Assembly (NCBI RefSeq): GCF_964204645.1
Contig: NC_134033.1
Span: 16,314,655 to 16,378,654 of the forward strand
DNA: 64,000 nucleotides
Direction: 5' to 3'
From: Tubulanus polymorphus
Lineage: Eukaryota > Animalia > Nemertea
The notes under the pieces: model-generated
What the model was told of the DNA's origin: nothing
What the model saw: only the letters and a program-made list of their open reading frames with translations
Databases searched by the model: none
Part shown: piece by piece, positions 39,570 through 63,649 of the stretch
Position numbering within the stretch: position 1 is the stretch's first letter
Layout of the letters: each line of letters starts with the position of its first letter
Position numbers and translations under genes: made by a program

Positions 39570-39700
39570 ACTTCTGAAACTGATAAATAGTTATACTGAT
39601 AAACGACGATCACTAATACGAGATATTGCTATAAAATCAGAGCTTTCAAATGCATTCGAATCGTTGTTAACCTCAACACCGACTTCGTCCAGCAAAACAG
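39570..39700 (+). promoter_or_regulatory. Conserved core promoter and non-coding exon 1 of family A (TGATAA boxes, TATAAAA at 39630-39636); homologous blocks at ~43655-43786 (+), ~48660-48790 (-), ~50950-51078 (+)
   Basis: Near-identical ~130-bp block upstream of all four paralogues, ending in the donor aaacag|gtaa. Confidence 0.8.
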
Positions 39701-39792
39701 GTAATGTTCAGTACAATTATCATCTCATTTCGCTGTGGTGTCGTTCGCTTCAACCAATTCGATGACCAGAGATTTCGAATTCAATTTTCAGA

Positions 39793-41062
39793 ATGGTCTC
39801 GTTGAAAGTCATCGCGCTCTTCGTCTTCGTCGGACTCGTTGCCGTTCAGGCAAAAGGTAAGTTTAATCATTTTGACATATCTCTTCACATAAAACGGAAT
39901 GGTTTGGGGCATATAGATCTATAAGTTTAACCGGTAGACTGGTATTAATATCAATTTAGAGCTAATGAAAAGTAAGTCGGTTATCTGACAATTTCGTGGT
40001 TTCTTCTAACTTCTCTAACGATGAAAAAGTTATCCCGAAACCGTCTGATAATAAACTAACTTTTTCAATATCTACCGTGGGTTTCTACTCGGTATCTTTG
40101 ACTTCGTTTTCTGGATTCTTTTATTCTTTTGATTTTTTGAATGTAAATCTATCGTTGATGATATTCGCGAATATTCGTCTACTTTCAGAAGTAAGCGAAG
40201 TAGAAATCACCCTCGAAGAGGATGCTGGTGGTGAGTACCACAGTACAAACGCTTAAAATGTTGTAGAGCTGATTTGTGTTAACCGAATATAGAATTAAAT
40301 GTTATATAAACAGGCAGGTCCACAGTACTACCTGTTTTCTTGTTTTAGTATAGACCATCTAATTTGTTTACTTCGCCGAAATGAATTGAATGGGTTTAAT
40401 TAATAAACAATCGGGTACCCGCAGTACTACTGTGGCAATCGAGGATTCAACGTATGGCAGGCGAGAGTCCGCCAGGTTCGCTAGTGGTCGTCCGCGTTCG
40501 ATATCTTCTATATTTCAATCAAATCTAAATGAACTTTTCTCTTAAATGAATCAATTATTTTTAAGAAAACTTTATACCGATATCCGAGTTTAAAAATGAA
40601 AGTATTGTATATTTGGTGGGTGCTGCGATAATGTATGGACGGGGAGTCAAAAAATCCATTTCGACCTACTGCTTGTCCACCATCTGGCGGAATAGCTGGT
40701 TTTGCGGATACCCAATTGAATATCGAATGTATGGAAATGTATTCAATGTTATTGCAGAAGGCCATGACATTGAAAAACGTGGGCCGGTCGCCGGAGCTAT
40801 AGCCGTCGAAGCCATCAAAGCAGCTCTCCAACTGGGTACCAATCTTCTGGACAGCATCTCGCAACATTACTACAACAACAAAGCCATGATCTGTTACTGG
40901 AACGATTGGCGAGCACGTGACGCCCGCGCCCGTATCGAGAGAACCTTCAGAAATTGTCGATTCTCGCGAGCTAAGCGTACCTGGGGCTGGGTGAACGGAA
41001 GATGGTACTGCCTGATGAAACAAGTTGCCTGTAAAACTCTGGGCCACGCTCTCGGCAAATAA
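39793..41062 (+). CDS. Family A paralogue A1: secreted prepropeptide, 93-aa cationic 4-Cys mature peptide (candidate antimicrobial or toxin)
   Basis: Exons 39793-39856, 40189-40230, 40758-41062 (all phase 1): MVSLKVIALFVFVGLVAVQAK-EVSEVEITLEEDAGEGHDIEKR-GPVAGAIAVEAIKAALQLGTNLLDSISQHYYNNKAMICYWNDWRARDARARIERTFRNCRFSRAKRTWGWVNGRWYCLMKQVACKTLGHALGK*; AATAAA at 41161. Confidence 0.85.
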
Positions 41063-59616: not shown

Positions 59617-60258
59617 ATTGAACCTTCTTCATCGGTCGTGGATTCATTCGTTCATCTCGAAACTAACTGAATATGTATCTTGAATGGTGCATATATTATA
59701 TATGTCTGATTGAATAATTGTGATGAACAAATTATAGTTCTTCTTCTGAATAAATAAATGAATAAACTATCAGTCATAGAAAATTGAGTTTGTTTTACTG
59801 TGAATTCTCATTGTCAGTTACCTGCTTCACCAGGCCGGCATTTGAACGGGCGATAAAGCAAAGATCCTCCCTCGACAGACGGGTTCGAATTTGATGGCGA
59901 TAATTGGGCTCGAATCCCAGTCGAGGGAGAAAGGGACAACGAAAAAGCCTCAACAGTGACTTCCCCATATGCGCGACAGGTCCGACGTCACATTAATAAA
60001 GAAAGACGTGGACTTTTCGAGTTCCAAAAATGTGTTTATTTTGTGGAGGAAATTGCCCAAAAGGCACGTATTACCATAACCATTCCTGTTTTAGAAAAAT
60101 GAGTCGATGTAGATGCCTCTGATTTTTCAAAATTGTGGGGGAAAATTTCAGCGTATGCCTTTTTTTCCTGATGTCTGACCAATAGAAAAATGAAGGCAAT
60201 CTCAGCTTTAAAAAGGAAACTAACCGAAAAAAATTATAATTCGTCATTTTCCAGGATT

Positions 60259-63200
60259 TTATTGACATTTCGGCATACAACCGTACAAGCGTTTGATTCG
60301 CTCGACATCTATCGGATGTAGTTTGTTACGACCGATTTCGACATCTTTCTGTCGAGGAACGATTGTCGATATACGATTCTTACTGAAAAACAGTAATTAA
60401 ATCACCACAATTCGCATTATTCAAAATCATAGATTTAACTTTTTTGATGCGCAGTTGAACTTTACCTGAATGCGAATACACCGTAGTGCATCAATGAGCC
60501 ATACGTGTACGGAGTGCCCAGAGTATCAGCTTGCACTATCTCGAAATTGTGTCTCTCCTCTACAAGAAATCCATATATTCTTCTATACATGGGTCCTTTT
60601 AAAAGGAGGGTGATAGTATTGGGCTTTCAGGGAATATATTTTTGGGCATTCAGTTTTTAGCGGTTAAGCTACAGCAAACGAGTAACAATTACGCAAGCTG
60701 GAGTTCGTGGCCGTTGTTGTCAGACTATCTGCGTGGATGCTTATATTACATATAAACTATAGATCGTTATTTTGAAATACATATCTACGCGTCATTGTAG
60801 GGCAACCCACATATGGCTCGGCCGTGAGCTCTGGTGAGGCCAAAGTACGGATGTTATGAATGGTGACGTGTGAAGGTACGTAAGCACTCCATACATGGGT
60901 CGGTGAAATGTTGTGGCGCCGTATGACTGCGTCACAATCCGTGAGCATCGAGCCATGTGTGGTCAAGGACCTGTACACGTCACTAAAAAGTTAACAGATA
61001 GAAAAGAAAAGGAAGAGCAGTTAGAGAAGAGATGAGATATCAGAGTAAAATTGAATTGGCGAACGTTTTAAGTGAATGGGTTAGAGAAATGGGCGAATGT
61101 TAATATCGGATAAAAAGAGCTGAGAGCCCACACCAACCCCAGACATCAATGGAGAATTAGGGAGAGGATTGCACAAACACAATAAGGGCGGGGATATCCC
61201 ATACACAAGGATAGTGGGTGGTATTTAGCGAGTCATCACACTGACCAGACAAACTTACAAACTAGTTCAGTGCTCAGTGAAACTGATTTATGAGTAGACA
61301 AGATAATTTACTAACTAGTTTTCTAGCGTACCCTGTTGGGAACTTGGAGGTCGGCCGGATTCGAATCCAGAGTAAGGGAATCGGCCAACATAGGGTATTC
61401 ATAGTTGTTTTTTAACAAAATTATGAACTTTGCCAATCATAACAGTTCAGGGTCCAGTTCCACAATTCTGAGTTCAGATACAACTCCGAGTTAACTCATT
61501 GAAAAAAACTAACTCTAACTCACGACAGTGGATCTGGGTCCAGAGGTCTAGTCACAAGCAAGCAGGATATTAATATAATAGAAGGTCCTGGGTTCGGATC
61601 CTTTGGCTGCGATTGACTTTCGGTGTCACTTTTTTGTATTGACTTCCTCTTATCTGTACTAAATGAATTGTTGCTGATTTTCTATACTATTGCTATTGTA
61701 AAAAAGGAAAGGGAATTATGAAACTGACCTGGTTTTACGTTTTCCCAGAATACTTTAACGAACTGTTCCCTATCAGGACGCGATTGTTCGTGAATGAATC
61801 CAAGCGCGTGTAACAATTCGTGCATTATCGTATAACGTTGTTTCACACACGCAAAACTCAATCCTACTAACTGTCTGCCACCGACCATTCCAACCGACGA
61901 GAAACAACTACAAAAAACACCAAACAAAACACAAACAAATTAAACTCTGTCTCTTTCGAGCATATACGCGACGTTTCGGACTCTCTTTCTCTCTCGAGCA
62001 GCTGCCACCGCTGCTGTTCAAATGCTGTATTCAATGCATTTTGATATGTAATGATATTAAACAAAAATTTAACTGTTTTGGGGTTCGACCCAAATTTTCG
62101 CGGTAATGGATTTTTATGGTACGCTTAAAATTCCCCTGCTTCGTCCACTGGGGCGTTACGATGAAATGCGATAGATTTGGATGTGATCACCTCACAGGTG
62201 ACTGACCAACTGACCCAATTTTCTGCTAGACGCTTTATTCCTCTAAAAAAGGTTAAGACGTGTTGGACTAAACGTACCGTGTATGTGGTCCGATACTGAG
62301 GAAGTTTTTCGTATTGCTAGATTTGATTTTAAACTTTATACAGCCGCTTGTAGCATCTGTCAGTTCATCCATGGTTTTATAGATTTCAACTCTTTCCGAG
62401 AGATCTTCAACGAGAACAAAAGATGATATGACCTGCACAACCACTAAAAGATGCCCAGAACTTCCATAGATGTTTTTGATTTACGTCATTTGTTTATCTT
62501 GCTTTATATAGTTTGGATCATAGTTTCCCAAGACTTCCATATTTGATACCTCTCGAAGGGATTACATTCCCCCAGCAGGGATTCGAACGAGATTGACATG
62601 TTAAGGAACATGCAACACTAACCGCGAGTGCGCAGCCTCATGTGCAGCCTCATGCTAAGCTAAATTCTATTTTGTTTTAACCCGGGTTTTTCCATTTATA
62701 GTTCTGCCATGAAATTTGCCTCAGTGATTAGGCCTATACAATTGCACTGTATGCAACCAACAGGACTCAACCTGCTTGGACTCAGCAGTGATAATGTATG
62801 AGATTCCCGCAGTTTCACGACACTCGTAGTTTTAGTTTCACTTAATTACGTAAATTACATACCGAAAAATTCTGTTTCAAAGTAAACTGTGTTGTTCGGC
62901 CATTTCCTCGCTCCTTGTTGTAAATTCCTAAACTGTGTTAAAAAAAACTAAGATGCGTTGAACGCTCGCATTTCAACCCATGGCTTTACTAAATTACTGT
63001 TACTATCTAATATACTATTTCGTTTTATAACAGGCTTCGAACTTGGGATCTGGGTTGGTCTGACCATAAAAATATTGATAACTATATTTCCGATAGATGG
63101 CGTATGTAAAATACAGTTCAATGCAAATCTTTGCCATTGACGTTTCAAGAAATTTGGTAGTTCAGCGAAATTCTAATAGATGGCGATAATGTCGTAATGA

Positions 63201-63649
63201 ATATTCCTCGTACATCTCGGTTTAACAAACATTTGCCAATCATTCATGAAACGATTATCTCAGGACCACTCGGATTCGGTATCAGTAAAAACTGATTCGA
63301 TTCTTGGACAACATATATCCAAGACAATGCAGAATCAGCGGGAATAAGCATTAGGTTCGGACCTAGGGTAATCACACTTGGGTAGGTATCAATAATAAGT
63401 ACTGGGTTCGAGCCTAGGAAACCAGAGTTCATCGTGGAATAGATATCAATAATATAGATTATCAAATGCATACGGATCCAAAATTGCTGATGTCAATATC
63501 TCCTTGGTAAAGACCTGAAAACTCCGTGGGATGCTGTTCTGTAAGAAATATATAAACGGTTTAAACAAGTTTGATGTCAAAAATTATTTATCTTCGAGGT
63601 AAAAGCGAGCGTTTAACTCACGTTTGTAAGCCTCGAATTCTACTTCACT
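60259..63649 (-). CDS. Astacin-family (M12A) zinc metalloprotease, protease domain only; 5' end unresolved
   Basis: Exons 63622-63649, ~63474-63538 (pro-peptide GLYQGDI Asp switch), 62863-62932 (RN...KWP), 62278-62404 (CIKF), 61729-61907 (CFSSVG...HELLHALGFIHEQSRPDR), 60466-60559 (Met-turn SLMHYG), 60259-60382 (D...IKRLYGC...stop). Confidence 0.88.

Follow-up and report, generated by a model that had tools for sequence, protein, structure and literature searches.

Two tandem arrays of genes for predicted secreted pro-peptides lie beside a convergent astacin gene in the nemertean Tubulanus polymorphus

We analysed a 64,000-nucleotide stretch of the genome of the palaeonemertean Tubulanus polymorphus (contig NC_134033.1, positions 16,314,655 to 16,378,654 of the forward strand; the whole stretch is called the window here). 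A sequence-only reading of its right-hand part had proposed a defence or venom cluster composed of four small secreted pro-peptide genes of one family (A1-A4), two of an unrelated family (B1 and B2), and an astacin protease gene. Exon models that we built from splice signals confirmed all seven genes in their proposed places, each model having GT-AG junctions and open frames. The locus consists of two tandem arrays, all of whose genes are intact and encode predicted secreted pro-peptides, with a convergent astacin gene alongside.

The A1 gene occupies 39793..41062 on the plus strand (coding exons 39793-39856, 40189-40230, and 40758-41062; 136 amino acids) and is identical to the protein P0001 (LOC141911408). 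Its last exon is 100% identical to an NCBI "uncharacterized protein" of T. polymorphus. A2 (43878..44942, plus strand; coding exons 43878-43950, 44132-44149, and 44632-44942; 133 amino acids) matches P0004 (LOC141911407), A3 (47338..48553, minus strand; coding exons 48553-48478, 47988-47971, and 47645-47338; 133 amino acids) matches P0003 (LOC141911406), and A4 (51184..52419, plus strand; coding exons 51184-51259, 51772-51789, and 52106-52419; 135 amino acids) matches P0002 (LOC141911409), with 0 mismatches between the four genes and these RefSeq-derived proteins outside split codons. The database models of P0003 and P0004 begin 33 residues earlier, and the added N-terminal stretch is read across the TATA box; this is likely an over-extended annotation because A1 and A4 have no such residues. 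The proximal promoter of A1 together with the start of its 5' untranslated exon (39573..39692, plus strand) contains two WGATAA sites and a TATAAAA box; its 120 bp match their A4 counterpart at 99% identity, yet the second introns of A1 and A4 are just 45% alike. In three of the four A promoters two WGATAA sites lie within 110 bp of the TATA box; at least two such sites occur in 2% of 110-bp windows. A3 and A4 form an inverted duplicate pair (47132-48832 versus 52623-50906, 87%), and a tandem array of about 55-bp units lies between these two divergent genes at 49343-49831. A 225-bp element to the left of the cluster (37537-37761) recurs inverted in the second intron of A1 (40408-40631, 79%). 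It resembles a splice acceptor at its start, contains a short open frame, and probably represents a stray 3' exon or a dispersed repeat.

The B1 gene, modelled from splice signals only, lies at 54477..55766 on the plus strand (coding exons 54477-54483, 54802-55074, 55478-55534, and 55744-55766; 119 amino acids), and B2 lies at 57720..59616 on the same strand (coding exons 57720-57726, 58056-58316, 58813-58866, and 59594-59616; 114 amino acids). Three sequencing runs compared with the locus behave like genomic contigs, with no splice joints among the rows listed. B2 and the astacin gene converge, their stop codons being 642 bp apart, in agreement with the tail-to-tail spacing of about 640 bp noted earlier. 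The seven 3' exons of the astacin (M12A) gene, at 60259..63649 on the minus strand (63649-63622, 63538-63474, 62932-62863, 62404-62278, 61907-61729, 60559-60466, and 60382-60259), encode a pro-segment and a complete catalytic domain, with the stop codon a few codons past the conserved C-terminal Cys. The product matches PF01400 (E 6.5e-17; 62.3 bits against a cut-off of 22.5) and has the HEXXHXXGXXH zinc motif, the SxMHY Met-turn, and the GDI motif of the pro-region. Because the first visible exon (63649) opens at a splice acceptor, the 5' end and signal exon lie outside the window; the description of this astacin as single-domain thus holds on its C-terminal side, the other end being beyond the window.

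These seven genes had been called the only genes within about 24 kb. Searches with tblastn found no further A or B copies within the 64-kb window, no Rfam family matched between 36000 and 64000, and no additional gene was recognised among stop-free frames of at least 45 codons in six intergenic stretches, judged by eye. What had been overlooked is an eighth, decayed astacin element between B1 and B2. A decayed astacin-exon remnant at 56557..56606 (minus strand) matches 62313-62358 of the intact gene (86% over 50 nt, E 9e-12), and an intron-like remnant at 55975..56039 (minus strand) resembles the astacin intron at 61577-61642 (77% over 66 nt, E 1.7e-8), although the latter may be a dispersed repeat. 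The best control match in eight other stretches had an E value of 0.016. The two remnants are colinear, and the decayed exon has the same strand and order relative to B as the intact astacin, indicating that B was duplicated together with at least part of the astacin and that the astacin copy then decayed. The linkage of B with astacin is therefore older than the duplication of B. This older linkage does not show functional coupling or a need for the astacin. A GCT/GCC-rich repeat that would encode poly-Ala on the minus strand also lies between B1 and B2, among the remnants, at 56343-56430.

All six pro-peptides have hydrophobic N-termini (11-residue Kyte-Doolittle maximum 2.9-3.4), from which secretion is predicted. 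In each A gene this N-terminus is followed by a pro-segment of 20-23 residues ending in Lys-Arg (KR) and then by a mature protein of 91-93 residues (A1, 93 residues, net charge +11; A2, 92 residues, +10; A3, 91 residues, +10; A4, 93 residues, +11) that contains four Cys and ends in Gly-Lys. The first 24 residues of mature A form an amphipathic helix with a hydrophobic moment of 0.44-0.46 (shuffle p 0.001-0.015). Each B gene encodes a signal-like N-terminus, an acidic pro-region of about 66 residues, the sequence RSKR, and a Cys-free peptide that ends in Gly and is coded over three exons. The mature peptide of B1 has 29 residues, a charge of +4, and a hydrophobic moment of 0.56 (shuffle p 0.037), and that of B2 has 28 residues, a charge of +2, and a moment of 0.52 (p 0.054). 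Both pro-regions had been described as Asp/Glu-rich, which is apt for B, where 14 of about 66 residues are acidic (net charge -8), and less so for A, where 4-7 of 20-23 are (net -4 to 0), with signal-peptide ends set by eye for these counts. The view of the six as secreted pro-peptide genes with effector-like properties is thus supported, as a prediction from sequence.

The two B genes differ unevenly along their length. Their pro-regions (66 codons) are separated by 4 synonymous and 0 non-synonymous changes, whereas their mature exons (17 codons) differ by 11 non-synonymous changes and 1 synonymous change (Fisher p 0.003), such that 7 of 17 residues differ. The rapid change of the mature exon fits diversifying selection on an effector, and a conserved pro-part with a variable mature part, as in B, is described for fish cathelicidins and piscidins in passages of PMC4690011.

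The sites at which the pro-regions end bear on what might mature these peptides. The dibasic sites are IEKR, LSKR, IEKR, and LEKR in A1-A4 and RSKR in both B1 and B2, and the first mature residues are Gly, Ala, Tyr, and Gly in A1-A4 and Leu in each B. The astacin had been put forward as a protease that might process the peptides, but all six mature starts follow Lys-Arg with a non-acidic residue, and an astacin that prefers an acidic residue at P1' would not create such ends. A furin-like enzyme is reported to cut prodomains that end in KR or RR in antimicrobial peptides of invertebrates, big defensins among them (searchable text of PMC7203481). To judge from these sites, convertases would suffice for maturation and the astacin next door probably does not mature the peptides; trimming by astacin inside the pro-regions is possible. 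The C-termini of both families, Gly in B and Gly-Lys in A, are given as amidation signals in passages of PMC5863496, and amidation is predicted accordingly. An Arg of the window astacin aligns with the region of the GQR Arg of 3lqb, the S1' position, in a weak alignment with a one-residue gap (E 0.34). As an Arg or Lys at S1' is present in over 80% of astacins (PMC3186203, in part), this residue tells little about the present locus.

Family A is not an orphan, being a domain of about 90 residues and of alpha/beta type with relatives elsewhere and no database family name. A HMMER scan of 1.84 billion representatives (50% library) identified 91 A-domain proteins at E <= 0.001 and 46 at 1e-10; one of the 91, P0081, looks spurious. 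Three further A paralogues are annotated in Tubulanus, one of them on another contig, and a branch with support 95/83 (87 columns) separates the seven Tubulanus A proteins from the others. Look-ups of 30 relatives returned a name for 2: one is from Tubulanus, and the other is annotated as hypothetical in the coral Desmophyllum pertusum; the rest are environmental. A metagenome scan yielded 15 loci, of which 12 are clear members, several of them intron-split, and 3 look like chance. Eleven of the metagenome contigs (L002-L012) carry near-identical, partly intron-split members; the frame on L002 begins at the helix, without a signal peptide. A prokaryotic member was sought in 401 genomes, and the 1 match (E 1.8e-4), which lies within an apparent glycosyltransferase frame, is taken as chance. 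No A-domain matches were found in phages or plasmids, and a scan of genome contigs with the relative P0082 gave one 14-residue match.

Across 71 full A domains two Arg residues are present in 71 of 71, Asp and Cys in 69 each, Thr in 65, and Asn and Gly in 64 each. The domain occurs twice in tandem in P0007, P0008, and P0009, and behind a Ser/Thr-rich region in P0085, P0088, and P0078. It is also found behind EF hands (P0030, E 7e-8) and ahead of a Cys-rich tail (P0023 and P0049). The four copies in the window are among the most cationic members of the family: their core charge is +9 to +11 against a median of +3 in 65 non-Tubulanus domains, only 1 of which reaches +9.

An AlphaFold2 model of A from a 69-row alignment (pLDDT 84, pTM 0.71) predicts a helix at residues 3-22, strands at 30-32 and 36-40, a helix at 43-53, a hairpin at 60-79, and a helix at 81-86. 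Fold searches with this model, N-terminal helix included, returned nothing at E <= 0.001 from PDB or BFVD (best Z 3.9 and 3.5); such weak matches do not prove a new fold. Pfam gave no family for the A domain on the window proteins, 26 relatives, or the 69 alignment members, and NCBIfam, run on 7 proteins, left it unmatched. The best hits of sequence searches against PDB were a designed repeat protein for A1 (E 0.008) and E 0.049 for the 69-row profile, and the best Atlas result for A1 (0.78) was unrelated. We had presumed a likeness to the lectin MVL, a small strand-helix-strand-strand module with Trp-Asn at a helix start, but the profile test, which took in the WxGxW motif of MVL, failed: hhalign against 10 MVL domains (PF12151) gave a probability of 0.3% with 79 of 200 shuffles as good, and none of the 69 members had a Pfam hit to it.

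The region that precedes the A domain in two fused relatives (P0085 and P0088) offers a further lead. For this region Atlas returned aerolysin/ETX-MTX2 at 0.92, with a low recognition and shared-feature count, and the aerolysin-fold chains 1w3a, 2ztb, and 6lhz matched its low-confidence model at Z 2.8-2.9 over about 110 residues. A pore-former fusion is a weak suggestion. Aerolysin-class pore formers often carry a separate receptor-binding domain. The invariant polar and aromatic residues of A, its tandem forms, and this weak fusion lead suggest that A may be a binding module.

We propose, with a probability of about one in two, that the peptides of the window are host-defence effectors directed against microbial or other foreign cell surfaces and cut at Lys-Arg by proprotein convertases, and that the astacin is probably not their maturase. 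In the scheme we envisage, for which we infer the cleaving enzyme, ligand, target, and tissue, convertases would cut the A and B pro-peptides at Lys-Arg. B would release an amidated amphipathic helix of 27-28 residues that disturbs membranes, having been held inactive by its acidic pro-region. A would release a cationic protein of 91-93 residues with an amphipathic N-terminal helix, whose invariant Asn, Arg, Asp, and Arg residues together with a Trp might form a site for an anionic surface ligand such as a glycan or a lipid head group.

Several observations weigh against this proposal. The N-terminal helix of A carries no net charge or a slight negative one (-1 to 0) and occurs in most relatives, and it may for these reasons be structural and not lytic. 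In all six A pairs pN/pS is 0.15-0.45 over the last 84 codons, from which it follows that the A copies are constrained; by this crude count family A evolves under purifying, not diversifying, selection. The A-domain family also seems to act inside cells, as suggested by the N-termini of 69 members, 34 of which are hydrophobic while 13 start at the domain without a hydrophobic N-terminus, some of them perhaps truncated predictions. For the putative pore-former fusion, the model of the fused region is poor (pLDDT 60), Pfam and NCBIfam are silent on that region, and its profile comparison with three ETX/MTX2-family domains was at chance (163 of 200 shuffles as good; 2 versus 3 sequences). As for B, the charge of B2 is just +2 and its moment is borderline against shuffles, the identical pro-regions could stem from gene conversion, and a search with the pro-exon of B1 found no protein among 369 candidates, to which low complexity may contribute.

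It is unlikely, in our estimation, that the locus is instead a co-expressed venom or toxic-mucus locus directed against prey or predators, with the astacin as a spreading factor or pro-peptide trimmer. That the host is a nemertean fits such a role, as do the tandem toxin arrays of Lineus, with five cytotoxin-A loci (passages of PMC10674772), and the resemblance of the B layout to melittin-type amidated helices (PMC5863496); yet the family motifs were not found in what could be searched of the nemertean toxin supplements of PMC9415933 and PMC9132205, which are biased to known toxins. The earlier statement that astacins are mucus components is borne out for nemerteans, whose mucus proteomes are reported to contain them (PMC11768458, in part), and the S1' Arg, on its weak alignment, is present, but the mature N-termini after KR are non-acidic. 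Similarly, the linkage of B and astacin predates the B duplication, whereas the duplicated astacin copy decayed, and the upstream regions of A and B are without a common element (best blastn E 0.11).

That the locus serves the gut or feeding, with a digestive astacin accompanying gut-secreted microbe-binding proteins and A acting as a lectin-like, non-lytic agglutinin, appears rather improbable. GATA factors drive gut and blood-cell genes, and paired WGATAA sites lie near the TATA box in three of the four A promoters, but such sites are not gut-specific and the four promoters are copies and therefore count once. Purifying selection on A would fit a conserved ligand, yet no lectin fold matched the A model; short astacins such as crayfish astacin are described as digestive in passages of PMC3186203. 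Somewhat less probable still is an arrangement in which B acts as an amidated hormone or neuropeptide, A is a signalling or housekeeping binding protein, and the three families are adjacent by chance, for although B has the prohormone layout of signal, pro-region, RSKR, peptide, and Gly, and A-domain relatives without a signal peptide exist, the B motifs are absent from a Tubulanus-covering neuropeptidome supplement that names the genus 317 times (PMC8557429), 7 differences in 17 residues between the mature exons would be unusual for a receptor ligand, and B had no homologue in the protein database search.

Beyond the proposal that A and B are defence effectors, a broader reading of A can be put forward tentatively. 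A may be a small surface-binding domain with a fold not described before, patchily distributed among marine invertebrates and other eukaryotes and used in several ways: on its own in cells, in tandem, and to target pore formers of the aerolysin type; in this worm it would have been amplified and made strongly cationic, giving a new secreted antimicrobial or toxic class co-secreted with the new amidated lytic peptide B. Because catalogues of nemertean toxins and defence molecules are compiled mostly by similarity to toxins already known, families such as A and B are missed: A is annotated as "uncharacterized", and B has no database protein. Literature searches on the family motifs, the locus names, and the toxins and genome of Tubulanus polymorphus found nothing on this locus, judging by titles and passages. 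With about 90 residues, a confident model, invariant polar residues, and no family or fold match, the A domain is a candidate both as a binding fold not seen before and as a new class of defence protein in invertebrates, and B is short enough for direct synthesis and assay. We regard the unnamed, widely shared A domain as the most valuable result; the idea of a cluster with a protease adds little.

Other genes are present in the remainder of the window. To the left of the cluster lie an alpha-1,3-fucosyltransferase gene (GT10, E 7e-28; 34365-36160, minus strand) and a LicD-family gene (E 1e-19; 31650-32642, minus strand). An open frame at 21115-21981 (minus strand) has a weak PI-PLC-X match (E 0.03) and is possibly a secreted phospholipase-like gene. 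The stretch 6856-17924 (minus strand) encodes VWD, C8, and TIL domains, three kringle domains, and a Thr/Pro-rich stretch, and would be a mucin-like gene with kringles if its exons form one gene. A nearly intronless receptor gene at 786-5504 (plus strand), with a C-type lectin domain, LDL-receptor A repeats, leucine-rich repeats, and seven transmembrane segments, is presumably similar to GRL101.

Compared with known systems, the window astacin shares with family M12A the zinc motif, the Met-turn, the GDI motif of the pro-region, and, on the weak alignment, a putative S1' Arg, and differs in a GQR motif that is one residue shorter, in having no C-terminal ShK, CUB, or MAM domain, and in an extra Cys just before the stop. 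A resembles a big defensin in layout, since big defensins have a signal peptide, a short prodomain ending in KR (or RR), a mature protein of about 90 residues whose N-terminal part is hydrophobic and whose C-terminal part is cationic and contains disulfides, and possible amidation (PMC7203481, in part). It falls outside that family: the C-terminal region of big defensins has six Cys versus four in A, many A relatives have 1-3 Cys, A has no Pfam defensin match, and its predicted order is helix-strand-helix-hairpin-helix, with no defensin among the fold matches listed (best Z 3.9), a listing that may have missed a beta-defensin-like fold. The Cerebratulus cytolysin A-III and the parborlysins are, like A, nemertean proteins of about 10 kDa, strongly basic and encoded in tandem arrays (passages of PMC6410017 and PMC10674772), but they are reported from heteronemerteans, have six Cys in three disulfides (PMC6410017), and are modelled as all-helical, which sets them apart from A with its four Cys and predicted beta-sheet. 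B shares with piscidins, melittin, and scorpion and frog-skin peptides a Cys-free amphipathic helix, a charged pro-region, a convertase site, a Gly amide donor, and a fast-evolving mature part. It differs in its low charge (+2 and +4), in a mature part split over three exons, and in having no sequence homology found to them. At 28-29 residues, with these charges and moments of 0.52-0.56 (B2 being borderline), both B peptides lie within the range of Cys-free, cationic, amphipathic peptides of 15-40 residues, and both have RSKR and a Gly directly before the stop in exon models built from splice signals. B can thus be placed among the linear amidated helical peptides by its layout, not by its sequence.

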